DNA of 64,000 nucleotides from an uncultured Rickettsiales bacterium (GTDB lineage: Bacteria; Myxococcota_A; UBA796; UBA9615): NCBI GenBank assembly GCA_964490445.1, contig CAZBDA010000011.1, positions 2,252 to 66,251 on the forward strand, read 5' to 3'. Both the position numbers and the translations under genes were made by a program. Below, in pieces: positions 16,865 to 30,795 of the stretch. The first letter of the stretch is position 1. Every line of letters begins with the position of its first letter. The notes beneath the pieces are model-generated. The model did no database searches, was not told the origin of the DNA, and worked only from the letters and a program-made list of their open reading frames with translations.

Positions 16865-17938
16865 TCAGCCGCCAACCTCGAGCGCAAAGGCCGAGGCGCC
16901 CCAGGCCCGCTGCACCTGGACAGCAGCATGGCGCTCGACCAGGGCGAGCACCGTTCCACCGCCACCTGCGCCAGTGATCTTCGCCGCCAGAGCACCGGCG
17001 GCGAGAGCAACTCGAACAGCCTCCCGGTCGGCATCCCACACCACGCCCAACTGCTCAAGACATGCCTGCTGCTCCATCATGGCCTGCGCCAGTCCCGGCA
17101 AATCGCCCGAGGCCCAGGCGGAGCGACCGATGCGACTCCAGCGACCCATCTCCGCGATCGCCCGAACCAGGGTCGGCTCGGCACCGAGGCGCTGCCGAAC
17201 ACCCTCGACCAGGTCGCGGGTGGGGCAACTGCTCGCCTGCGGACGAAGCACCAACACAATCGGCGGCAGACCCTCCAGGGCCGTGGGATGAATGCCCTTC
17301 TCGAACCAGACCGGCTTCTCGAGGGTAGACACCGTGTGGTCAATGCCCGATGGCTGGCCGTGGAACATGCGTTCGACCGCAGCCGCAGCGAGGACGACCC
17401 GCTCGGTGTCAGGCGCCTGCCCATACCAGCACAGCAGCGCTCGCCCGAGCGCCGTGCCGAGTGCTGCCGAAGTGCCCATGCCCGACTGCAGACCGCCGGA
17501 ACGCACAGCAAGACGCAGCGGCAGCGGCAGTTGCAGGCCCAGCGCCTGGGCGGCAGTGCCCAGGGCACGGAAGACATCCGCCCGCGCACCTTCGGGGGCA
17601 CGCTCATCGAGGGTGATACTGATGGGCGGCACCTGTTGGTCACCGACAGAAGGCATGGCCTGAGTCGCACCGCCTCCTCCCGCCAACTGCAGATCCTCGG
17701 GATCAATCTGCAAACCCACCTGGCTGCTGATCTGGGCTGCGGCAAAGTCCATGGGGCCCCAGCCGGCACCCGGCTCAGCCAACACCACGGACAGGCGGTT
17801 GGTCGACAGAGGCAAGGCGAGTGCAGGCTCGCCGTAGACCACCGCATGCTCACCGAGCAGGATCAGCTTGCCGCAGGCTGTCGCCACGACGGGCCGATGA
17901 CCCGGAGCTGTATCTGGTAGATCAGAAGAGGTGGTCAT
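16865..17938 (-). CDS. mvk: Mevalonate kinase
   Basis: GKLILLGEHAVVYG, GMGTSAA, HGQPSGID, AKITGAGGGG. Start moved to MTTSSD. Confidence 0.88.
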   Translation of the reverse strand: MTTSSDLPDTAPGHRPVVATACGKLILLGEHAVVYGEPALALPLSTNRLSVVLAEPGAGWGPMDFAAAQISSQVGLQIDPEDLQLAGGGGATQAMPSVGDQQVPPISITLDERAPEGARADVFRALGTAAQALGLQLPLPLRLAVRSGGLQSGMGTSAALGTALGRALLCWYGQAPDTERVVLAAAAVERMFHGQPSGIDHTVSTLEKPVWFEKGIHPTALEGLPPIVLVLRPQASSCPTRDLVEGVRQRLGAEPTLVRAIAEMGRWSRIGRSAWASGDLPGLAQAMMEQQACLEQLGVVWDADREAVRVALAAGALAAKITGAGGGGTVLALVERHAAVQVQRAWGASAFALEVGG

Positions 17939-18917
17939 CGTGAAGTCTTGCCCCCGGTCCGGGACGATTTTCGAGTATTTCGGCTCGCGGGGCCAGCTTG
18001 TCGATACGCCGGCGTAGTTCGGGAGCATCCTTGCTCTCGCACAGGATGTGCACATTCGGCCCGGCATCGAGGGTGAAGTACACCGGCATGCCATCTTCCT
18101 CGCGCCAACTGCGCACTGCCTGCATCAAGGCCACCGTGCCCGGCTGCAGGTACAGCGCCGAAGGCTGGCCACTCATCATGATCCCCTGCACTTCCATGGC
18201 CTCGTGCTCGACGATCTCGCCGAACACCTGGAACTCACGCTGAGCCAGGGCGCCCTTCAGCGCGAGGATGCGGGCAGGCAACAGCTTCTGCCGTTCCGCC
18301 ATGAAAGGGTGGGCGCTCGCAATGCGGTGCCCCTCGGAGCTGGAAATCACCTTCGGGCTCCGCGAGACCAGGACGACCAGGTCGGTGAGATCCCAGTGGT
18401 CCGCGGGGCAGAACTGCTGTGAGACCGAACCCAGGTCGTCTTCTCCCGCGGTCCACTCCACGAAACCACTTTGAATCGACCGACAGGCGGAACCGCTGCC
18501 GCGTCGCGCCCAGCGAGTCATCTCGGTTTCGCTGGGGAGGTCTTCACCAAAGGCGCCCAGCGCGGCGCTCGCGAGCGCCGCGAACCCCGAGGCCGAAGAT
18601 GCAATCCCGGTACCGGCCGGAAAGGAGTTCACCGACGCCACCCGGGCATACATGCGGTACCAATCCGCACGGATCTTGTCGAGGTAGCGGGAAATTCGCA
18701 CGCCACGACCGTCGAGGACCCGCTCCCCTTCCAGGTAGATCTCGTCCTGCCGGAGCGTCGGATCCCACTCGACGGTAGTCGTGGTGACGGCAGCCGACAG
18801 GTTCATCGAGATGGAATCGTTCAGAGGCAGGTTGCAGTCGAAGTCCCGCTTACCCCAGTACTTGATGAAGGCGATGTTCGAGCACGCCGTCGCGCTGGCA
18901 CACATTCGATCGGTCAC
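17922..18917 (-). CDS. mvaD: Diphosphomevalonate decarboxylase
   Basis: NIAFIKYWGKRD, LPLNDSIS, GIASSASG, RRGSGSACRS, SSSEG, FTLDAGPNVH. Confidence 0.95.
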   Translation of the reverse strand: MTDRMCASATACSNIAFIKYWGKRDFDCNLPLNDSISMNLSAAVTTTTVEWDPTLRQDEIYLEGERVLDGRGVRISRYLDKIRADWYRMYARVASVNSFPAGTGIASSASGFAALASAALGAFGEDLPSETEMTRWARRGSGSACRSIQSGFVEWTAGEDDLGSVSQQFCPADHWDLTDLVVLVSRSPKVISSSEGHRIASAHPFMAERQKLLPARILALKGALAQREFQVFGEIVEHEAMEVQGIMMSGQPSALYLQPGTVALMQAVRSWREEDGMPVYFTLDAGPNVHILCESKDAPELRRRIDKLAPRAEILENRPGPGARLHDDHLF

Positions 18918-19897
18918 GGTATCTCCTCCCGCTGCAAGCCGCGCGGTTCGACCCTCACATCCAGCACGTCGAGGCCGAGCTCGGTCGCGGCGCTAGCAGC
19001 TTGTTCCGGCTGCTCTGCGAGGATCAACACGCAGTCCCCCCCACCGGCACCACTGAGACGAACCCCGAGGACGCCAGCACAATTTCGTAGCCTCTCTACC
19101 AGTTCTGCGAGCTCCGCGGGAACAGCACCCAATGTCTCGAGCAAGCGCTGTCCTTCCCCCATCGCCGCACCCAGGCCGAGCGAGTCCCCCGATTCAAGCA
19201 TCGAGATACCACGCCGTGCCCGAGAGCCTATCTCCGCGTAGAGGGGATGACCGGGGGCAACGCCCCTACGCACATCTCGGAGCATCTCGGCGGGCGACGC
19301 CTTGCGGCGAGACCAGCCGACTACCCAGTGCAGGGGCGGACTGGCAGGCGGCTCGACCCGCTGCATCGGCACCTCCGCCGAAGCCTCGAACACCACGTAG
19401 CCGCCAAGCAACTGAGTCGCGACGTCATATCCTGAAGCCGCACCCTGAAGCTGCTTCTGGGCGGCATGGACCTCGGTGAAGATCGCCGAAGCCGGGCAGT
19501 CCTCGCCGCTCAGATAGCGCAGCGCTGCGGCCGCCGCCAGGGTCGAGGCCGACGATGAACCCATTCCCCAAATCGGTGGAAACTCCGCATCAAAACGAAG
19601 TGATAGGCCCCCACCAACTGCCGAGTGAGCACGCAGGACCGGCCACAGCAGGCTCAGCTCCGGAACCGGCGGTCGAGATTCGAGCAGCGTGGCCATGGGC
19701 ACTCGGACGGGAGCCGCAAACACACCGTCGGCCAGCAACTCGAGCGTGTCGCCGCCGGGCACCGTGCACGCCTCACAGGCAATACGGCGGTCCAGGCACA
19801 TCGCGATGGCAGGATGTCCCTCGAGCACCGCGTATTCACCAAAGAGCATGAGCTTGCCGGGCGCCGAACAACGAGCCCGGCGGGGGGCAGCGGTCAC
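18914..19897 (-). CDS. Phosphomevalonate kinase (GHMP family)
   Basis: APGKLMLFGEYAV, GMGSSSA, SGYDVA, LSGAGGGDC. The GEYAV signature and operon position separate it from mvk. Confidence 0.8.
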   Translation of the reverse strand: MTAAPRRARCSAPGKLMLFGEYAVLEGHPAIAMCLDRRIACEACTVPGGDTLELLADGVFAAPVRVPMATLLESRPPVPELSLLWPVLRAHSAVGGGLSLRFDAEFPPIWGMGSSSASTLAAAAALRYLSGEDCPASAIFTEVHAAQKQLQGAASGYDVATQLLGGYVVFEASAEVPMQRVEPPASPPLHWVVGWSRRKASPAEMLRDVRRGVAPGHPLYAEIGSRARRGISMLESGDSLGLGAAMGEGQRLLETLGAVPAELAELVERLRNCAGVLGVRLSGAGGGDCVLILAEQPEQAASAATELGLDVLDVRVEPRGLQREEIP

Positions 19898-21123
19898 GTC
19901 TCGTCCGCCGGATCCAGCTCGCGGCTCAACTCAATGTTGCGAGCGTGCAGCCTCATGTGACCCTTCTGAATCCCCTCGGTGGCCAGCGCACGCAGAGCAC
20001 CGAGGTTCTGCGCGAGACCCACCGCAACGATGATTCGCGCGAGGTCGCGGGCACGGGTCACACCGAGCAGACGCAGCGCAAAGCGAGCCGCTGGGTGCAG
20101 ACGCGTCACTCCACCGATCGTGCCCACCTGGAGCGGCAGCTCGAGTTCGCCGTAGAGGTCACCGTCCTCGAGCACCTGCCAGTTGGAGAGACTGCGGTAC
20201 TGGCCATCGCGGGCCGCCCAGGCGTGAGCACCTGCCTCGACCGCGCGCCAGTCGTTGCCGGTAACCACGACGATGGGGTCAATGCCGTTCATGATTCCCT
20301 TGTTGTGGGTAGCCGCACGGTAGGGGTCGTACCAGGCGAAACGAGCGGCCTCGACGATGCGCCGTGCCACCTCCGAACCGTCCAATTCCGCCACCGAGAG
20401 GTCGGCGGCCGAGATCCGGCAACTGGCCTTGAAGCGACGATGGGCGGCGAGATTCGACAGGATCCGCAAACCGACTCTGCCACCTGCCCAGCCGGCAATG
20501 TCGGCGGCAAGCTCCTCGCACATCGTGTTGACGACGTTGGCTCCCATGGCATCCACGGGATCCACCAGCAGGTGCACGACCAGCACGTGGCCCGCGCCGG
20601 TTTGCTCGGGCTCAAAAAGACGGCACTCGATGTCGCGACAACCACCGCCGGCAGCGACGAGCGCAGGGTCCAGCGCATTGGCCATCTCGATGATCTCGTC
20701 TCGACGTGACTGCACGGCGGCCACCGCCACAGCAGGGTCGGGCACATCGAGGACCTGCACCTGGCCGATCACGAGGTCCTCGAGCACCTCGGTAACAAAG
20801 CCTCCGGTGTTGCGAACCAGGCGCGCCATGTTGGACGCCGCCGCCACCACCGAACTCTCCTCCACCGCCATGGGAACCAGCACCTCGCGACCATCGACCA
20901 CGAAATTGACGGCGATGCCCAGAGGCAGGACGAAGGAACCGATGACGTTCTCGACAAAGCTGTCGAGCAGGCGTGGATCGAGCTTGCCATCCACCGCCAC
21001 GGCGATGGGGTCGCCCTCCTCCAGCCCAGCGGCGGCACGAGCCACCGCCTGCCTCTGCTCGAGGCCGAGACGATAGAAGCCAGGGATCCGGCTCGTCGGC
21101 ATGTCCTCGCTGGCATCGGTCAT
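19894..21123 (-). CDS. mvaA: Class II HMG-CoA reductase
   Basis: ENVIG, EESSVVAA, DAMGAN, THNKGIMNG, GNDWRA, EGIQKGHMRLH. ATG 21123 overlaps the idi stop. Confidence 0.95.
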   Translation of the reverse strand: MTDASEDMPTSRIPGFYRLGLEQRQAVARAAAGLEEGDPIAVAVDGKLDPRLLDSFVENVIGSFVLPLGIAVNFVVDGREVLVPMAVEESSVVAAASNMARLVRNTGGFVTEVLEDLVIGQVQVLDVPDPAVAVAAVQSRRDEIIEMANALDPALVAAGGGCRDIECRLFEPEQTGAGHVLVVHLLVDPVDAMGANVVNTMCEELAADIAGWAGGRVGLRILSNLAAHRRFKASCRISAADLSVAELDGSEVARRIVEAARFAWYDPYRAATHNKGIMNGIDPIVVVTGNDWRAVEAGAHAWAARDGQYRSLSNWQVLEDGDLYGELELPLQVGTIGGVTRLHPAARFALRLLGVTRARDLARIIVAVGLAQNLGALRALATEGIQKGHMRLHARNIELSRELDPADET

Positions 21124-22424
21124 CGGGACTCTCGAACCTCCAGTGCCCGCAGGCCACTCAGTCCGCCGGCACCGCTGCATAGCATTGCAATGCGAAGTTC
21201 CTCAAGGATTCGTCGCCCCAGCGCCAGGACAGCTTGCTGGCTATCGTCGGCAGCCCGGAAGAAAGGCAACGCCATTCCGGCGACATCGGCACCCAGGGCA
21301 ATGGCTCGTGCGACGTCGACGCCGTTGCGCACCCCGCCGGTCGCGATGATCGGAAAGTCGGCACCGAGGGCAGCCCGACACTCGCGCACGGCATCGCCGG
21401 TAGCCAGGCCCCAGTTGCGGAAGGTCTCGCCCATTGCCTGGCGCTCCCGGTCCTCGGCTCGCAGCCCTTCGATCCGCGCCCACGAGGTGCCGCCGCCACC
21501 GCCCACATCGATGGCAGTGGCCCCCATCTCCCGGGCCAACAGCGCCATTGCCGCAGACAGGCCGAAGCCCACTTCCTTGAGAATGACCGGTACTCCAACC
21601 GTAGCGATGAGTGCCTCGACCTTTACTCGCAGGTCCCGCCAGTCACGGTCGCCTTCGGGCTGCACCATCTCCTGGATCGGGTTGAGGTGCAGAGCCAGAG
21701 CATCCGCTTCGACTGAATCGATCAGGCGGCGGCAGTCGTCCACGGAGACTCCGTGGCTCAGCTGGATCCCACCGACATTGGCCAACAGCAGGATGTCTGG
21801 CGCCACGTCACGGACCTGGAACGTGGCAGCCAGCCCATCCTGCTCGAGCAGCACCCGCTGCGAGCCGAGTCCCATGGCCAGCCCGAGCTCCTGTGCGGCA
21901 TAGGCGAGTCGCTTGTTGACCTGTCCGGCCCGCGGCGAGCCACCCGTCATTCCAGCAATCATCAGCGGCGCTTCAAGATGCTTGCCGAGCAGCTCGGTGG
22001 CGAGGTCCATGTCCTCGGGACGCCCCTCGGGAAGAGCGACATGAGGCAGCGTCCAGCGCTCCCAGGCACGCTGCTGCAAGCCGGCCTCGACGTCCTGTTC
22101 GGCGACAATGGACAGGTGACTGTCCTTGCGACGGGAGCTGAGATGCCCCTGCAGGACACGTCCACTATCGCCCTGCCAGTCGAGCACGCTGAGACTCCAA
22201 CGAGTCATCCCTTCCGGCGCTCCCTCGACCTGTTCCCGCACCTGTGCGGTGCCGCTGGCCCGCGAACCCGGGGCGAGGAACAGGCGCAGCGTCACCTCGC
22301 TACCTGAGGTCAGCGGCTGCTCGCAGTCCACCAGCAGAGCGTCCGGCCCAATGGCAGGACACAAGCCCGACCTGCCGTCGATGCGAACAGGCAGGTAGGT
22401 GCCGAGGCGTACCAACTCCCTCAC
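21120..22424 (-). CDS. fni: Type 2 isopentenyl-diphosphate isomerase with an N-terminal PilZ-like domain
   Basis: RRKDSHL, GMTGG, GLGSQR, LHLNPIQE..QPEGD, KEVGFG, GGGGTSW, ATGGVRNG. Extra ~95 aa N-terminal; GTG start with GGAGG SD. Confidence 0.92.
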   Translation of the reverse strand: MRELVRLGTYLPVRIDGRSGLCPAIGPDALLVDCEQPLTSGSEVTLRLFLAPGSRASGTAQVREQVEGAPEGMTRWSLSVLDWQGDSGRVLQGHLSSRRKDSHLSIVAEQDVEAGLQQRAWERWTLPHVALPEGRPEDMDLATELLGKHLEAPLMIAGMTGGSPRAGQVNKRLAYAAQELGLAMGLGSQRVLLEQDGLAATFQVRDVAPDILLLANVGGIQLSHGVSVDDCRRLIDSVEADALALHLNPIQEMVQPEGDRDWRDLRVKVEALIATVGVPVILKEVGFGLSAAMALLAREMGATAIDVGGGGGTSWARIEGLRAEDRERQAMGETFRNWGLATGDAVRECRAALGADFPIIATGGVRNGVDVARAIALGADVAGMALPFFRAADDSQQAVLALGRRILEELRIAMLCSGAGGLSGLRALEVRESR

Positions 22425-24250
22425 GAGGAACCTCCGTCGCCGCTTGCCGCGCGCCCTTCACGGGCAGCGAGCATCCAGCGCACTCCCAGCCCGACAAGAA
22501 CCACCATCAACACAGCCCAGACCAGCCAGTCCGCGCGCGGCGTGTAGGGATTTGCCGGCCACATTACCGGTGAGAACAAGCCATACGCGACCACTGCCAA
22601 CCAGGCCGCCCAGCCACGACGGCCCTCGGGGGTCCGACCACGCCAGCCCAGGAGCAGCAGCAGACTCGCTACCAGCCCGCACAACTGCACGAACCAGTCA
22701 CCCCACCGCACGTAGGGTGTCAGCACCCGCACCTTCTTGACGTCGTAGACCAGCACGCCCCGCTCGAACACGCCGAGCGTGGCAACGAGCTGGCCGCGGG
22801 CATCAGCTACTGCACTGATCCCGGTGGTCGCCGCGCGCACCAACGGCACGCCGTACTGAGCGGCCTGCAGCACCGACAGCATCAGGTGCTGGTGGGGGCA
22901 GCCCGTGTCGCCGAACCAGGCGTCGTAGGTGATGTTCACCAGCAACTCGGCACCGCGATCGACACCACCACGCACGTAGCGATGGCGGATTGCCTCGTAG
23001 CAGATCAGGAACACGAAGTCGGCGGATGCTGTCTCGAAGACTGTCAGCCCATCGCCCGGGGCGAAGTTTCCGACGCCCTGGATCTTCTTGAGGATCGGGA
23101 TGCGATCCTCGAGCGGCATGAATTCGCCGAAGGGGAGCAGGATGTTCTTGTCGTAGGGCGGATCGGCGGCAAGTTCACCGGCTTCGCCCCGCGGGTAGAC
23201 CCGGAATGCGGAGTTGTAACTGGAAGGCTCTCCATCCGCGCCGCGCCGAACCAGGCCACCACCAGTCCACAACTCGGCACCAGTCACCTTGATGAGCTCG
23301 CGCACCCGGCGATTACGTCCCGACTTTGGGCTGCGACGGATGGCCCCCTCGGGCCAGATGAAGACGTCGATGTCGCCGTGCTCCTTCCAGGCCTGCAGGC
23401 TCAAGTCGACGAGATCATCGGCAATCGCCGACCGTCGATCAGCACGCCGCACGCCCAGGCTCTTTTCGCTCTTCGCCCTCTCGACCATCATGCTGCGACG
23501 CTTGAACACGTCCTGGTTGGCTTGCACCAGGGCGACCCGGAAGGTCTCAGCATCCTGCTCGGCAGCTTCGATCCGGCCCCCCTGGTACGCGGACCAACTC
23601 AGCGCGACCACCACGAAGAGCAGCCAGGCTCCCAGGTTGGTCAGCATGGCGCGGTCGATGAGCGGAAGCTCGGGGCTGGCGTGACGCTCCCACAGGTCGA
23701 CCAGGATGCAGTTGCTCAGCAGCATGAAGAACGAGATCCCGGCAACACCGGTCAGGCCAGTCACCAGGAAAAAGCTGCTGAGTTGGTACCAGGTGACGCC
23801 CTGGTAGTAAGGAAACAGCTGCGGATTGAGGTACTCGACCACCGCAAACCAGGCGGCGATTGCCAGCGGCCAATAGCCACGCGACACGCGGCGAATCGGC
23901 TCGAAGCCCCAAGCAAACACGGCCATGTAGAAGCCGAACGCCAGGGAGAACAGCAGCAGGCAGCCTGCTGCCAGCACCCACGGCAGGTTGGAGAAGGTCT
24001 CTACCGTGTAGATAATCCACGAGAAGATGCTCGCGTTGGCAGCAACGCCCACCAGCCAGCCAGCCAGCAGCGCGCGCCGCCCCTGCAGCTTGCTGAGCAC
24101 AAGCAGCGCCGGCACGAAGCCGACCAGGTGCAGCCACCACAGGTTCATCGGCGCCGAGCCCCAGCGCTGGAAGGCACCGGAACAAACCAGGGCAACAATG
24201 GCCAGCGCCACCTGCCATCGCCGCTGCTTGCTTTGGGAGGCTCCAGCCAT
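22421..24250 (-). CDS. lnt: Apolipoprotein N-acyltransferase
   Basis: N-terminal TM helices; nitrilase triad WPEG (E), YDKNILLPFGE (K), LICYEA (C); RAATTGISA. Confidence 0.93.
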   Translation of the reverse strand: MAGASQSKQRRWQVALAIVALVCSGAFQRWGSAPMNLWWLHLVGFVPALLVLSKLQGRRALLAGWLVGVAANASIFSWIIYTVETFSNLPWVLAAGCLLLFSLAFGFYMAVFAWGFEPIRRVSRGYWPLAIAAWFAVVEYLNPQLFPYYQGVTWYQLSSFFLVTGLTGVAGISFFMLLSNCILVDLWERHASPELPLIDRAMLTNLGAWLLFVVVALSWSAYQGGRIEAAEQDAETFRVALVQANQDVFKRRSMMVERAKSEKSLGVRRADRRSAIADDLVDLSLQAWKEHGDIDVFIWPEGAIRRSPKSGRNRRVRELIKVTGAELWTGGGLVRRGADGEPSSYNSAFRVYPRGEAGELAADPPYDKNILLPFGEFMPLEDRIPILKKIQGVGNFAPGDGLTVFETASADFVFLICYEAIRHRYVRGGVDRGAELLVNITYDAWFGDTGCPHQHLMLSVLQAAQYGVPLVRAATTGISAVADARGQLVATLGVFERGVLVYDVKKVRVLTPYVRWGDWFVQLCGLVASLLLLLGWRGRTPEGRRGWAAWLAVVAYGLFSPVMWPANPYTPRADWLVWAVLMVVLVGLGVRWMLAAREGRAASGDGGSS

Positions 24251-24261
24251 CGTGGCGGCGA

Positions 24262-24290
24262 CTGTTAGCACGGCCCGCAGACCTTGTCAG
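24262..24290 (-). promoter_or_regulatory. Putative sigma70-type promoter of the lnt-mevalonate operon
   Basis: Minus strand CTGACA-N17-TAACAG with TGc directly before the -10; 11 nt upstream of ATG 24250, no SD. Confidence 0.45.
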
Positions 24291-24359: not shown

Positions 24360-25040
24360 ATGACCACGATCAAGACGCGAGAGATCACCTGCCCTCTGTG
24401 CACAGAGGCGTTCGTGGGCTGGTCAGTACTGGTCGGTCCCGCGAGCGGTCCCCTGGCTTCGGACCTGCGTCGCTACCCCGAGGGGCAAGATCCCATTCCC
24501 AGGCAGCTCAATAGTTGCCCCGTTTGCGGCTACTCGGGCGAAGTGAGCGCCTTCGAGGAGTTCGCGCCGGAGCCGGATCGGCCCGTTGCCGGTGAAGACG
24601 CTAGCCTTCGCGAGCTGGTCGACCGCCATCTGCGGCCACACGCCGCCGAGTGCCATGGCAACCCAGCACTTCGCTACGAGCAGCACGCCCTGCTCGAAGG
24701 TTGGCTGGACAACGGGCCGCTACGCCAGGGCGATGCCTGGTTGCGCGCAGCCTGGATGCACGGCGATGCTGACCATGGCGAGGATGAGCGCCGCTGCAGG
24801 GAGCAGGCCCTGCGCTGCTACCGGCAGGGTCTCGATGAACGCAAGTGGCTGCGTCGCCGAGAAGACATGGTGGTGATCGCCTACCTGGTCGGCGAGCTGT
24901 GCCGACGCCTCGACCAGCGCGACGATGCACTGCGCTGGTTCGAACAGGCTGTCGCCTGGTCCTCGGGCCTCCAGCACATGCAGGAGCTGGTCGAACTCGC
25001 CGAGCGCCAGGCTCGCGACCCTCGAGACCTTGTGCGCTGA
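24360..25040 (+). CDS. DUF2225-like protein (two CxxC motifs plus helical TPR-like C-terminus)
   Basis: CPLC...NSCPVCGYS; AWLRAAW, YLVGELCRRL. Extended -10 TGcTACCCT at 24311-24319. Confidence 0.75.
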   Translation: MTTIKTREITCPLCTEAFVGWSVLVGPASGPLASDLRRYPEGQDPIPRQLNSCPVCGYSGEVSAFEEFAPEPDRPVAGEDASLRELVDRHLRPHAAECHGNPALRYEQHALLEGWLDNGPLRQGDAWLRAAWMHGDADHGEDERRCREQALRCYRQGLDERKWLRRREDMVVIAYLVGELCRRLDQRDDALRWFEQAVAWSSGLQHMQELVELAERQARDPRDLVR

Positions 25041-25086
25041 CGATTGGGGCTACCCCTTTCGCACCGCTGTGCTACACCCTGGCGCC

Positions 25087-26184
25087 ATGAGCAACGCGAA
25101 CGATCTCTCCTTTCGGAATTGGCTCACACCGCGACTCGAGCGCGTCCTGGACGGCGGCACAATCGAGCGAACCGACGCTCTGCGCCTGCTACACGCCGAC
25201 GGTGCCGACTGCTTCGAATTGTTCGCCGCCGCAAACCGCATCCGGCAAGCCTTCCACGGCGACTCGATTCACCTGTGCTCCATCGTCAACGCAAAGAGCG
25301 GGCGCTGCTCGGAAGACTGCGGCTTCTGCAGCCAGTCGGTGCGCTTCCCCAGCGACATCCCAGAGTACGACCTGGTCGACACCGAGACGGTCCTGGCGCA
25401 CGCTCAGCGGGCAAAAGAGAACGCATCTCAGGCACTGGGCATCGTGGCAGCCTGGCGTGGGCTCAAGAAGGGGCCCGAACTGGATGGCGTACTCGAACGG
25501 ATTCGCGCCCTGGCCGCAGAAGAGGGCATCCACGCCGATGCGAGCCTCGGGCTCATCGACGACCCGGACATCCCCGACATGCTCAAGGACGCCGGCCTGC
25601 ACACCTATAACCACAACCTCGAGACCAGCCGGCGCCACTTCTCGACGATCTGCGAGACCCACTCCTATGACGACCGCATCGAGACCCTGAAGCTGATCAA
25701 GGGAGCCGGGATGCGCACCTGTAGTGGCGGCATCTTCGGCATGGGCGAAGAGCTCGAGGACCGCGTGGAGTTAGCCTTCCAACTGCGGGAACTCGAGGTC
25801 GATGTGATCCCCCTCAACTTCCTGAACCCCATGGAAGGAACTCCCATGGCGGGTCGGCCGCTGATGGAACCCATGGAGTGTTTGCGAACCGTCGCGATGT
25901 TCCGCTTCGTCAACCCGAAGACACACCTGATGGTCGCCGGCGGCCGCGAGGTGAACCTGCGCCACCTGCAGCCGCTGATGTTTGCTGCGGGAGCCGACGC
26001 GACCATGGCCGGCGCGTACCTGACCAGTGACGGGAACGCGGGACAGGACGACCTCGAAATGATTCGCGAACTTGGCCTCGACCATGGCCCCGTACAGCCT
26101 GCCTCGACACCGGAAGCGAGCCCTGCCACCGGCGCTGGCCGTCTGCAGGTGATCCCGCCGGGCACATCCCCACCCTCCTGTTGA
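25087..26184 (+). CDS. bioB: Biotin synthase-family radical SAM enzyme (atypical auxiliary-cluster ligands)
   Basis: NAKSGRCSEDCGFCSQS, YNHNLET, CSGGIFGMGE, IPLNFLNP, AGGRE, YLT. Confidence 0.88.
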   Translation: MSNANDLSFRNWLTPRLERVLDGGTIERTDALRLLHADGADCFELFAAANRIRQAFHGDSIHLCSIVNAKSGRCSEDCGFCSQSVRFPSDIPEYDLVDTETVLAHAQRAKENASQALGIVAAWRGLKKGPELDGVLERIRALAAEEGIHADASLGLIDDPDIPDMLKDAGLHTYNHNLETSRRHFSTICETHSYDDRIETLKLIKGAGMRTCSGGIFGMGEELEDRVELAFQLRELEVDVIPLNFLNPMEGTPMAGRPLMEPMECLRTVAMFRFVNPKTHLMVAGGREVNLRHLQPLMFAAGADATMAGAYLTSDGNAGQDDLEMIRELGLDHGPVQPASTPEASPATGAGRLQVIPPGTSPPSC

Positions 26185-26220
26185 CAATTTCTTGACATTA
26201 AACCCGGTATGCTGGACACT
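26181..26220 (+). promoter_or_regulatory. Tandem TTGACA hexamers; putative promoter of the downstream lipoprotein gene
   Basis: TTGACA at 26181-26186 and 26192-26197 (11-bp period); second copy is 17 nt from GACACT (26215-26220). Confidence 0.5.
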
Positions 26221-26247
26221 GCGCATCCAGATCGAGGGACCCCGAAG

Positions 26248-28692
26248 ATGACCACACGGCACGATCCCCTGCCCCGATTCGCTTGCGCGCTGTCGCTGTC
26301 GCTGCTGCTTGCCTTGCCAGGCTGCGCATCCGACCAGGATGAGTACGGGATCCTCGGCCCCCTGCAGCAGAGCGAACAGGCACTCAGCAGTTCGGGAACC
26401 GGTAGCCCCGGCCTGTCCTCCTCAGTTGCCGGAGCCAGCACCGAGGTGTGGGAGGCCAGCAACAAGTGGGCCGACACCAACAACAGCGACGCTCGCCAGG
26501 CGGGCCTGGCCTGGGGCAGCAACTCGGGCCTCAACTGGGAGCAGAAGTACAACGTCTGGATCCAGCAGATGCAGCAGACCGCTACCTACAGCGGCAACGG
26601 CAAGACCTTCCGCATCACCAACCCCCAGGGCAAGACCATCGACGTTCCCTCCCTGGAGTGCGCCGAGCTGGCTCTGATGATGCGGGCCGTGTTCGCCTCC
26701 TGGTACAACCTGCCGTTCTTCCTCGAAGCGAAGGATTCCGCGGGAACCCGCGTGTTCCTAGGCCACTTCGGATTCCGCACCGACAGTGGCCGCTACAAGA
26801 ACACGCCGAACTTCAAGACGAAGTACAACGACTACAGCCACCTGGGCAATGCGGACGCCCTGGCCAGCTGGCCGCAGGACAGCCGGCTGCGCGGACGCCA
26901 CCTATACAGCCGCGGTAACCACGACGACCTGAATCCCTTCCTACACGCGGATGCCGGCGCCGGCTGGTACTTCGACGAGTTGCTGGTCAACAAGCGGGTG
27001 GGACACTTCCTGCTGCTGCTGCTGCCCTACTTCGGTTCGGCCAACCTGGCGGACGACACCAACGCCTACCACGCCACCCCCGAGAGCCTGCGCGCCGGCG
27101 ACATCCTACTCAAGCGCTGGCAGCGGCGCGGTATCGGCCACGTCATGCTCGTCAAGGACGTCGAGCAGCGCCCCGAAGGCAAGATGGCCGCAGAACTCGC
27201 ATCGGGCTCCATGCCGCGACGGCAGGCTGTCTGGGAGAGCCAGGCTGCCACCAAGATGCTGTTCACCAACAAGCTGACGGGCGGCGAAGGCGAAAACCAC
27301 AACGGTGAGCGCTACGTCAACCTCGGCGGTGGCCTGAAGCGCTTTCTGATCGCCGAGTTGAACGGTGGGCGCTGGCGAAACCGGGTGCTTCCTGCCGACC
27401 TCAACACCTACATCCGCTGGTCCAACCGAACCGAGCGAGCAGCACGGCCCGACCGCTTCGCCGAACTCCTGGTCGAGGTTCCCCCCGAGGAGTTGCGCGA
27501 TGAACTGCTGGCCATCATCGAGGCCAAGCGCGAGCACCTACGCAACTATCCAGCCTCCTGCTCGGCCCGCATCGCCCGGGAAGCGGCCTTTGCCGAGTTC
27601 TACGAGTTGATGGCCGACAAGTTCGACATGAGCGTGGACCAGGTCGATGGCGAGTACCGCATTCTCGAAGACTACGTATTTGCAGAGTTGATCTACGACC
27701 AAAGCAAAACCTGTTGCTGGAACAGCACCAACAGCAGCATGTTCGACGTGATCATGAGCTACAACCTGCAGCTTCAGGAAAGCGCCGCCTCGTGCGCATT
27801 GCCCGTGGTGTTCAAGGCCGTAGACGGCGGCTACGAGGTCTTCGCGCAACACGCACAGAGCATGGGCCTGGGCAACCAGTGGGCACCCTGGAATGACGAC
27901 GAGAGTTGCCCCCAGGCAGGCACCCTCAATGACGTGGAAGAGACCCACGGCTGGACCCCCTACTGCGAGGTCGAAGGCTCCATCAATGGCGATCAGCCAG
28001 GCACCGACACGGGCAGTGACCCCTACGAGGTCAACGACCGCCGCGAGCAGGCCTACCCCCTCGGCGAAGGCAGCCACCAGGGCGCCGCGATCAGCAGGGA
28101 CGACGAGGACTGGTTCACGTTCACACCGCCCACAGGCGCCACCGTGCGCATCTCGATCGAGTTCGACCACCGCGAAGGCGACCTCGACATGCAACTGTTC
28201 CGCGGTGCCACCCAGGTCGACCGTTCCAACAGCACCCGCAACACCGAGACGGTCGACAGCATCTTCGACGGAACCGAGCCCATCTCGGCGCGCATCTTCG
28301 GCTACGAAGCCGCTACCGGGCCCTACAGCATCACCGTGCTGTACGAGGGCGGCGTCGACCTGGGCGACCCGTGCGATGACAACAACGAGACCATGGACAA
28401 CGCCTTCGAGATCGATGCCGGTGTCTACAACGGGCTGCGCATCTGCAACTCGGATGTCGATTGGTTCCGCATTCATGCAACCGTCGGCGCAGCTGCCCTT
28501 TCCATCGAGTTCAGCAATGCCCAGGGCAACCTCGACCTCGAGCTCTATCGAAGCAACGGCGAACTCCTCGCGAGCTCGACCTCCAACGGCAACCAGGAAT
28601 CCGTCGCGTCGGGCGTCGGCGTCCGTTACCTCAAGGTCTTTGGTCGAGGCGGAGCCACCGCCGACTACACGCTGAGCATCCTCGAGGACTGA
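26248..28692 (+). CDS. Secreted lipoprotein: uncharacterised N-terminal Cys/His domain plus two C-terminal PPC-like domains
   Basis: Lipobox LPGC; LECAE and GDIL...GHV motifs; repeated DPYEVND...D.DWF...F....GDLD.L (PPC-type) twice. Confidence 0.75.
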   Translation: MTTRHDPLPRFACALSLSLLLALPGCASDQDEYGILGPLQQSEQALSSSGTGSPGLSSSVAGASTEVWEASNKWADTNNSDARQAGLAWGSNSGLNWEQKYNVWIQQMQQTATYSGNGKTFRITNPQGKTIDVPSLECAELALMMRAVFASWYNLPFFLEAKDSAGTRVFLGHFGFRTDSGRYKNTPNFKTKYNDYSHLGNADALASWPQDSRLRGRHLYSRGNHDDLNPFLHADAGAGWYFDELLVNKRVGHFLLLLLPYFGSANLADDTNAYHATPESLRAGDILLKRWQRRGIGHVMLVKDVEQRPEGKMAAELASGSMPRRQAVWESQAATKMLFTNKLTGGEGENHNGERYVNLGGGLKRFLIAELNGGRWRNRVLPADLNTYIRWSNRTERAARPDRFAELLVEVPPEELRDELLAIIEAKREHLRNYPASCSARIAREAAFAEFYELMADKFDMSVDQVDGEYRILEDYVFAELIYDQSKTCCWNSTNSSMFDVIMSYNLQLQESAASCALPVVFKAVDGGYEVFAQHAQSMGLGNQWAPWNDDESCPQAGTLNDVEETHGWTPYCEVEGSINGDQPGTDTGSDPYEVNDRREQAYPLGEGSHQGAAISRDDEDWFTFTPPTGATVRISIEFDHREGDLDMQLFRGATQVDRSNSTRNTETVDSIFDGTEPISARIFGYEAATGPYSITVLYEGGVDLGDPCDDNNETMDNAFEIDAGVYNGLRICNSDVDWFRIHATVGAAALSIEFSNAQGNLDLELYRSNGELLASSTSNGNQESVASGVGVRYLKVFGRGGATADYTLSILED

Positions 28693-29842: not shown

Positions 29843-30763
29843 TCAAGCCGCCTCGACGGGTGGTGGGTCGACCCACTCCTGGGTTCCCGGCTCGGGCCAC
29901 TTCGGTCGTTTGCGAGACTCCAATAGCACCAGGATCCCCGCGCCGATGATGGCCAACGAGCCGTACTGGGCTGGAGTGAGCCCGAAATAGCGCGCGTCCG
30001 CGTGGCCGAGATCGATGTTGCGCAGGAAGTCCAGGAAGAAGCGAACCCCGCCGTACATGAACAGTGTCACGACCATCAGCACGCCTTCACGACGCGGCTT
30101 GCGCGCAACTACGATCAGGGTTGAGAAGATGACCGACGCAAGGATCACATCCATCAGCCCAAGGTCGAAACGCACGGTGTCCAACAACTGGTAGTTGCCA
30201 CCCAGGAACGCGAACTTCTCGTCTCCTGCGACGCGCGCAGCCTGGAACTCGGCAGTACTGGGATATCGCACTGCCAGCCAACCGATGGAGTCCTGTACCC
30301 ACTGCGGCGTCTCCGAGACTTTCCGGCCGATGTGGTCGTGGACAAGAAAACAGCCGATGCGTCCGAGCAGCCAACCGAAGGTGAGTCCGACAAGCAACAG
30401 GTCGGAGCCGCGAAGGACATTGACCCCGCGACGCTTGAAGAACACCACTGCCAGCACCGCACAACCGAAGAAGCCGCCGTACGAAGACAACCCCGACCAC
30501 ACGTAGAGCAGTTCCCAGGGCTTCTCGAGGTAATAGCGGGGGTCATAGAGCAGCGCGTGGCCGAGGTGCCCGAAGACCAGGGCCCCCACCGCCAACCAGA
30601 CCACGACATCGCTGTAGAGGCGCGGGTCCAGCCCTCGCCGGCGTGCATAGCGCTGGGCGACGACGGTGCCCAGCACAAAGCCCAGCGCCACCATGAAGCC
30701 CCACGGCTGAATGACCACCGGTCCGATGATCTCGAGAGGTGGCGGCCGGAAGTATGGGATCAA
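29843..30763 (-). CDS. lgt: Prolipoprotein diacylglyceryl transferase-like protein (divergent)
   Basis: GLSSYGG, GRIGCFLVHDHIGR, YGGVRFFLDFLR, GLTPAQY; multiple TM segments. Start 30763 or 30781. Confidence 0.8.
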   Translation of the reverse strand: MIPYFRPPPLEIIGPVVIQPWGFMVALGFVLGTVVAQRYARRRGLDPRLYSDVVVWLAVGALVFGHLGHALLYDPRYYLEKPWELLYVWSGLSSYGGFFGCAVLAVVFFKRRGVNVLRGSDLLLVGLTFGWLLGRIGCFLVHDHIGRKVSETPQWVQDSIGWLAVRYPSTAEFQAARVAGDEKFAFLGGNYQLLDTVRFDLGLMDVILASVIFSTLIVVARKPRREGVLMVVTLFMYGGVRFFLDFLRNIDLGHADARYFGLTPAQYGSLAIIGAGILVLLESRKRPKWPEPGTQEWVDPPPVEAA

Positions 30764-30795
30764 GGCAGGCCCTCGAAGCAAGAAGAAAGAGGCTC

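Follow-up and report, generated by a model that had tools for sequence, protein, structure and literature searches.

A predicted non-canonical PilZ domain fused to type 2 isopentenyl diphosphate isomerase in mevalonate operons of uncultured marine bacteria

Why does a type 2 isopentenyl diphosphate isomerase carry almost one hundred additional residues at its N-terminus? This question was raised by a gene in a 64,000-nucleotide stretch of contig CAZBDA010000011.1 (assembly GCA_964490445.1, deposited as an uncultured Rickettsiales bacterium), which is the window of this analysis. The gene, fni, is an open reading frame (ORF) of 434 aa on the minus strand (21120..22424) and encodes the type 2 isomerase (IDI-2) with an N-terminal extension. 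IDI-2 sets the ratio of isopentenyl diphosphate (IPP) to dimethylallyl diphosphate (DMAPP) that feeds all isoprenoids, and a regulatory domain dedicated to this enzyme is not known to us. A first-pass annotation of the DNA had read the extension as PilZ-like and had proposed second-messenger control of the isomerase. Our analysis points to an undescribed accessory module on an otherwise ordinary IDI-2, rather than a likely second-messenger switch.

The IDI-2 core was delimited by sequence comparison. The TIGR02151 model matched residues 98-427 (366.9 bits, above the cutoff of 281.3, E 8e-110, model positions 1-331 of 338), and the core thus starts where the first-pass annotation had placed it, at R98-R99-K100 of the RRKDSHL motif. 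Residue 6 of the Sulfolobus shibatae IDI-2 was aligned to query residue 98, and the solved IDI-2 chains begin approximately 5 residues before the RKxxH motif in the alignment of PDB sequences. Because the IDI-2 alignment starts at residue 98, residues 1-97 are extra. The core (residues 99-434 and the stop codon, 21120..22130, minus strand) was defined from the TIGR02151 match, the PDB sequence matches, superposition and invariant columns; the N-terminal domain (residues 1-98, 22131..22424, minus strand) was characterised by AlphaFold2 (AF2) modelling, Foldseek, hhalign, a profile search and motif counts.

Sequence matches of the query to PDB IDI-2 entries reached an E-value of 6e-61. Upon superposition of the full-length AF2 model, which had a predicted local distance difference test score (pLDDT) of 93.5, on S. 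shibatae IDI-2 (3B03/2ZRW), we obtained a target-normalised TM-score of 0.88 and a root mean square deviation of 1.6-1.7 Å over approximately 338 columns, and the model has the triosephosphate isomerase (TIM) barrel fold of the solved IDI-2 structures, which binds flavin mononucleotide (FMN). Among 63 family members, the columns R99, K100, H103, T160-G162, S188, R190, H246, N248, Q251, E252 and K283 were invariant; the query equivalents of the substrate and FMN residues (R99, K100, H103, T160, R190, H246, Q251, E252 and K283) were all present and all belonged to this set. The conserved residues of the S. shibatae enzyme include H11, T68, Q160, E161 and K193. A review names R7, K8, Ser9, R98, H155 and Q161 as conserved, places R7 and K8 among the residues adjoining the bound substrate and states that IDI-2 requires reduced FMN (PMC3509576). 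As judged from sequence and model together, the core is a complete type 2 IPP isomerase that is predicted to be catalytically intact; enzymes of this type convert IPP to DMAPP in dependence on reduced FMN and Mg2+. It shares the TIGR02151 core, the TIM barrel and the conserved FMN and substrate residues with the IDI-2/Fni proteins of S. shibatae (2ZRU/2ZRW), Thermus thermophilus (1VCF) and Bacillus subtilis (1P0K), and the location of its gene within a mevalonate operon is a further likeness. In contrast, characterised IDI-2 proteins have approximately 5-15 residues before RKxxH, whereas the query has a folded 97-residue barrel and a continuous helix.

The ORF could have been extended artificially, with translation starting at M73 (MTRW) or later and the upstream frame held open by high GC content; the genome contains 64% GC, at which long spurious open frames are common. 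We consider this hardly credible. The GTG start of fni (22424-22422) overlaps the stop codon of the upstream gene lnt (22423-22421) as GTGA, and a GGAGG ribosome-binding site (22431..22435, minus strand), read from the sequence, precedes the coupled GTG with a 6-nt spacer, exactly as the first-pass annotation had described them. An in-frame stop 11 codons 5' of the GTG makes this codon the earliest start that the frame permits. Start placement by the longest ORF in related loci was uninformative because high-GC frames are open upstream. The approximately 95-aa extension was kept in approximately 80 of the best 120 homologs (5345 were found), down to 43% overall identity; these proteins were approximately 430 aa long and aligned from residue 1, which also answered the first-pass call for an architecture search with many further fusions. 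M73 was present in the query, but methionine at this position was not kept in the relatives. Between the query and its 72%-identical marine ortholog in L001, a locus of a TARA Oceans assembly, the proportions of nonsynonymous and synonymous differences (pN and pS) in residues 2-98 were 0.32 and 0.75, respectively, and those in the IDI-2 core were 0.15 and 0.68, a similar ratio; the synonymous rate dS is saturated in this comparison, so that the dN/dS value is unreliable and only pN << pS is safe. As pN was far below pS in residues 2-98, selection acts on the extension as a protein. The confident model of the extension described below (pLDDT 95.8) is a further point against an artefact. On these comparisons, the N-terminal domain is translated and under purifying selection, and an internal start at M73 or later is excluded; what the first-pass annotation had called probable translation could be put more firmly.

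To which fold does the extension belong? Sequence searches were of limited use. Pfam gave no PilZ match for the query or for its N-terminus alone, and the precomputed Pfam assignments of the best 120 homologs contained no PilZ, with PF01070 in all of them and other TIM-barrel families in some. A profile built from an alignment of 63 N-termini of fused IDI-2 proteins found no PilZ domain among PDB sequences, and its matches were at chance level (DR1885 and transglutaminase Ig domains, E of at least 0.05). The PDB sequence search being uninformative, a fold search was needed for the domain. The AF2 model calculated from the same alignment had a pLDDT of 95.8 and a predicted TM-score (pTM) of 0.86, and revealed a six-stranded barrel (strands at residues 5-15, 18-25, 29-34, 43-51, 54-66 and 74-83) with a C-terminal helix (residues 87-97). 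When this model was compared with the PDB using Foldseek, ranks 1-36 were taken up by PilZ domains without exception (E 1.6e-5 to 0.04, probability 1.00, query-normalised TM-score 0.52-0.75), and included MotI/DgrA, Alg44, MapZ, BcsA, MrkH, PlzA, VCA0042, YcgR, PA4608 and PA0012. The β-barrel pattern that the first-pass annotation had discerned in the N-terminal 95 aa, and for which it had suggested a structure prediction, was therefore recovered as a PilZ fold.

Ranks 37-48 of the Foldseek search included the split-barrel prenyl-FMN maturase PhdC (probability 0.94-0.98). Together with the requirement of IDI-2 for reduced FMN (PMC3509576), this match raises the idea that the barrel is a split-barrel module related to flavin or reduced nicotinamide adenine dinucleotide (phosphate) (NAD(P)H) chemistry, which would help to load or reduce the FMN of IDI-2. 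We regard this as very improbable, because the query-normalised TM-scores of PhdC (0.42-0.47) were much lower than those of the PilZ matches (0.6-0.75), the sequence-profile homology led to PilZ and not to flavin reductases, and orthologs without the fusion function within the same operon setting. A flavin split-barrel identity was rejected on the weaker structural match.

Profile comparisons indicated that the similarity to PilZ domains reflects homology. Alignment of the 63-sequence profile with two canonical PilZ domains by hhalign gave probabilities of 88.6% (E 2.7e-6) and 95.3% (E 2.1e-8). In a search of 1.84 billion representative proteins, the same profile retrieved 124 matches at E<=1e-3; ten that were neither IDI-2 fusions nor fragments of these were checked, and Pfam identified each as a PilZ protein (E 1e-15 to 4e-47), with the tandem-PilZ type in the majority. 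The search with the PilZ family PF07238 that the first-pass annotation had proposed gave a divided answer: the query itself was not matched, while among the 63 N-termini scanned singly PF07238 was the sole Pfam family matched by more than one member (7/63), with all matches below the gathering score (best 21.6 bits versus 22.5). TIGR02266, a Myxococcus PilZ-related paralogous domain, showed a weak but recurrent similarity; it was matched by 10 of the 63 N-termini (E of at least 0.007) and by the query with E 0.009-0.011, and the query is not a member, as its 16 bits lie far under the cutoff of 68.7. The PilZ fold and PilZ homology of residues 1-98 are thus established computationally, from sequence profiles and the predicted structure.

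Among the sequences examined, the nearest relatives outside IDI-2, five proteins, were of the tandem-PilZ type and approximately 225-240 aa long. The IDI-type profile often matched the second (C-terminal) domain of such proteins, while the best PilZ stretch according to Pfam was the first. These matches may hint that the domain descended from a degenerate second PilZ domain. We also observed that C22 in strand 2 (codon 22359-22361, minus strand) was kept as cysteine in 67 of 80 family members and that R75 was conserved at the 90% level in a 35-sequence alignment; neither residue corresponds to a known PilZ motif.

Compared with the canonical PilZ domains that bind cyclic di-GMP (c-di-GMP), the domain has the same fold, strand order and C-terminal helix as well as profile-level homology, and it resembles that of BcsA in being fused to an enzyme. 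The differences lie in the ligand-binding elements: the N-terminal arginine loop is absent, neither RxxxR nor (D/N)xSxxG is conserved, strand 2 has a 4-residue deletion in the hhalign alignment, and the domain falls below the gathering score of PF07238. The two motifs in the query are RELVR (residues 2-6) and AIGPDA (residues 24-29). In the hhalign alignment with a canonical PilZ domain, AIGPDA lies opposite DISAGG, and R6 lies opposite the second arginine of RxxxR.

We counted the residues at these sites across 80 relatives. Position 6 was occupied by Arg in 55 and Lys in 11, position 2 by Ser in 31 and by Arg or Lys in 7 each, and both arginines of RxxxR occurred together in 3/80. At the (D/N)xSxxG site, which lies at the turn between strands 2 and 3 and has the family consensus (A/E)L(S/G)x(D/E)(R/A), the D/N position (query residue 24) was Ala in 29, Glu in 23 and His in 10, the Ser position (residue 26) was Ser in 40 and Gly in 27, and the Gly position (residue 29) was Arg in 22, Ala in 20, Glu in 12 and Ser in 11; [DN]xSxxG was found at the homologous site in 0/80. 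The seven closest relatives of the query had Ser or Lys at position 6 (Ser in six of them), and the RELVR of the query therefore looks coincidental. Strand 1 of the model starts at residue 5, which leaves the canonical N-terminal arginine loop absent. Thus, the first-pass annotation had correctly seen that (D/N)xSxxG is degenerate; its retained RxxxR is real in the query, with R2 and R6 present, but is not a feature of the family.

According to two surveys of the superfamily, PilZ domains that lack both motifs do not bind c-di-GMP, as predicted or demonstrated, and work through protein-protein contacts (bioRxiv 10.1101/2020.02.11.943704; 10.1101/814665). Pseudomonas aeruginosa PilZ (PA2960) and Xanthomonas PilZ, the tetrameric XCC6012 and FlgX, and the degenerate second domains of tandem-PilZ proteins share with the query domain a barrel without either motif. 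Unlike these proteins, which are adaptors on their own or belong to larger signalling proteins, the query domain is joined covalently to an enzyme of metabolism. A pattern scan of the window for GGDEF and canonical PilZ motifs, restricted to these 64 kb, found none in a credible frame. With both c-di-GMP motifs and the arginine loop missing, the domain is most likely no c-di-GMP sensor, as far as sequence and model allow this to be judged, and the second-messenger control of the isomerase proposed earlier is not supported.

The same counts bear on a broader idea, namely that the barrel is a genuine small-molecule receptor that would bind c-di-GMP via a non-canonical site, or would have another nucleotide or else an isoprenoid diphosphate as its ligand, and would gate the R99/K100/H103 segment allosterically. 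Its PilZ fold and homology, the Arg or Lys at position 6 in 66/80, the Ser at position 26 in 40/80, the conserved polar residues R14, C22, D33 and R75 and the rigid junction with the substrate-site residues speak for such a receptor. However, the first arginine of RxxxR is missing in most relatives, the D/N position is mostly Ala, Glu or His and the Gly position mostly Arg, Ala, Glu or Ser, no flexible N-terminal loop is available for wrapping a ligand, position 6 is Ser or Lys in the relatives closest to the query, and motif-less PilZ clusters are among those predicted or found not to bind c-di-GMP (bioRxiv 10.1101/2020.02.11.943704). We consider a receptor of this type improbable. If it were true, central isoprenoid metabolism would have its first PilZ-gated enzyme, and second-messenger or feedback signalling would be connected directly to the IPP/DMAPP ratio.

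How is the barrel connected to the active site? In the full-length AF2 model (pTM 0.89), a single unbroken helix (residues 87-109) joins the C-terminal helix of the PilZ barrel to the IDI-2 segment with R99, K100 and H103; in the alignment, R99 and K100 fall on R7 and K8 of the S. shibatae enzyme. The stretch from G84 to K100 contained 17 residues in 80/80 sequences, while the barrel loops varied from 3 to 17 residues. This fixed spacing argues for a rigid, geometry-constrained coupling of the barrel to the substrate-site residues, and the barrel is presumably located at the mouth of the active site.

From these features, we lean towards a non-canonical PilZ module whose role would be to cap, stabilise or dock IDI-2 and so to modulate it. 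The RKxxH segment, which is a free N-terminal end in ordinary IDI-2, would here be anchored to a rigid barrel, as the C-terminal helix of the barrel continues into the first IDI-2 helix bearing R99, K100 and H103. By analogy with other motif-less PilZ proteins, the barrel probably works as an accessory protein-contact or capping module, and it would tune the activity of the isomerase, its oligomeric state or its docking to a partner, rather than enable them. Several points count against this interpretation. The placement of the barrel near the active site is presumptive, and pTM gives only indirect evidence of where it lies with respect to that site and the oligomer interfaces; the sole lead to a partner protein is the conserved neighbourhood of lnt, fni and the 3-hydroxy-3-methylglutaryl coenzyme A (HMG-CoA) reductase gene (HMGR); and the Arg or Lys retained opposite the second RxxxR arginine, with the Ser of DxSxxG in half of the relatives, may mark a residual or altered ligand site in the barrel. 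The saturated dS given above and the crude tree described next are to be counted with them.

Is the domain required by the enzyme? P0059 (L013, 4314-5351) is a 345-aa fni ortholog without the PilZ-like domain, with 61% identity to the query. Its operon reads DUF2225-lnt-fni-HMGR-GHMP-MVD-GHMP (MVD, diphosphomevalonate decarboxylase), and the lnt-fni gap of 4 nt leaves no room for the domain. In a neighbor-joining (NJ) tree of IDI-2 cores, which is a rough one built from BLOSUM distances with midpoint rooting and without support values, P0059 and P0051 nested among the fused sequences. This nesting suggests that the domain was secondarily lost in the P0059 lineage, and hence that it is accessory and dispensable for catalysis. 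We also found a separate sub-family of four fused IDI-2 proteins with the junction FITRNRK(A/S)(D/E)HIRI, whose cores grouped beside non-fused cyanobacterial IDI-2 in the same tree. The PilZ-IDI fusion would accordingly be either old, with losses, or gained more than once.

The dispensability in P0059 is also consistent with an oligomerisation or scaffold element that has no regulatory role and only stabilises the IDI-2 tetramer or octamer or tethers the enzyme to Lnt, the membrane or the mevalonate enzymes. Structural tetramers occur among non-canonical PilZ proteins (Foldseek match 3ph1; FlgX, PMC11725899), and the overlapping stop/start adjacency of lnt and fni was conserved down to 44%-identical relatives. 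P0059, however, retains the lnt-fni adjacency without the domain, so that the adjacency is independent of it. A purely structural role is possible but, in our view, unlikely; it overlaps with the modulating module preferred above, and the two are not separable by the present analysis.

The fusion was confined to uncultured organisms among the carriers found, which comprised only uncultured marine metagenome-assembled genomes (MAGs) and metagenomes, with no cultured organism. A degenerate junction pattern was detected in at least nine species-level genomes in GTDB, all of them MAGs; the pattern was hand-made and covers only the G-H-x-S...RK clade, which makes nine species a lower bound. The titles of these genomes were Deltaproteobacteria bacterium, uncultured proteobacterium or "uncultured Rickettsiales", and other homologs were labelled Myxococcota or Deltaproteobacteria. 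Five related loci carry the title "uncultured Rickettsiales bacterium", a label that looks doubtful given the 64% GC of the window and the close relatives labelled Deltaproteobacteria.

The literature searched contained no described PilZ-IDI fusion and no link between PilZ and IPP isomerase or the mevalonate pathway, in agreement with the first-pass annotation, which knew of no characterised fusion. Such a fusion goes unmentioned in two surveys of the PilZ superfamily (bioRxiv 10.1101/2020.02.11.943704; 10.1101/814665) and in a review from 2026 on the diversity of isoprenoid pathways in bacteria. Standard pipelines (Pfam and the names given by the Prokaryotic Genome Annotation Pipeline, PGAP) miss the domain, and every member is annotated simply as IDI-2. 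Enzyme-fused PilZ domains are best known from cellulose synthase, where PilZ gates activity. In the present family, the conserved fusion and the fixed-length helix to substrate-contacting residues suggest a built-in handle on isoprenoid precursor supply, which would belong to a group of uncultured marine bacteria relying on the mevalonate pathway. If the domain were purely structural, it would add modestly to the known non-canonical PilZ domains.

The gene lies in a six-gene operon on the minus strand (16865-24271) that contains lnt and five isoprenoid-precursor genes, namely fni and the genes of four mevalonate-pathway enzymes. The gene order is lnt-fni-HMGR-PMK-MVD-MVK, with fni in second place. 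The first gene, lnt (22421..24271, minus strand), encodes apolipoprotein N-acyltransferase (TIGR00546, E 1e-57), lies directly upstream of fni and is translationally coupled to it. The class II HMG-CoA reductase (19894..21123, minus strand; TIGR00532, E 1.5e-119) follows, and its ATG (21123-21121) overlaps the fni TGA stop codon (21122-21120) as ATGA. Two junctions of the operon, GTGA and ATGA, thus have overlapping stop and start codons. Next are a GHMP kinase that is probably the phosphomevalonate kinase (PMK; 18914..19897, minus strand; 110.8 bits with TIGR00549, under the mevalonate kinase cutoff of 163, and E 1e-14 with TIGR01220), the diphosphomevalonate decarboxylase (17922..18917, minus strand; TIGR01240, E 1.7e-68) and the mevalonate kinase (MVK; maximal ORF 16865..18094, minus strand), for which TIGR00549 matched from residue 73 with 165.6 bits against 163.05. 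The true start of the mevalonate kinase is probably near 17938, as judged from the orthologous 354-aa gene in L001.

We found the same order, with lnt directly 5' of fni, in every related locus examined (L001, L004-L016). The fni products of these loci were 42-76% identical to the query over the available stretch, and the lnt-fni adjacency was also present in a 44%-identical relative.

On the other side of lnt, bioB, encoding biotin synthase (24925-26184, plus strand; TIGR00433, E 7e-113), is located between the DUF2225 gene and a gene for an 827-aa protein (26209-28692, plus strand). The syntenic marine contig L001 has no bioB at the matching position, which points to a local insertion or deletion. 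The 827-aa protein contains only a C-terminal PPC (pre-peptidase C-terminal) domain, and its remainder matches no family; the counterpart in L001 has 699 aa and no Pfam match. A further gene, lgt, is located approximately 6 kb from the operon (29843-30781).

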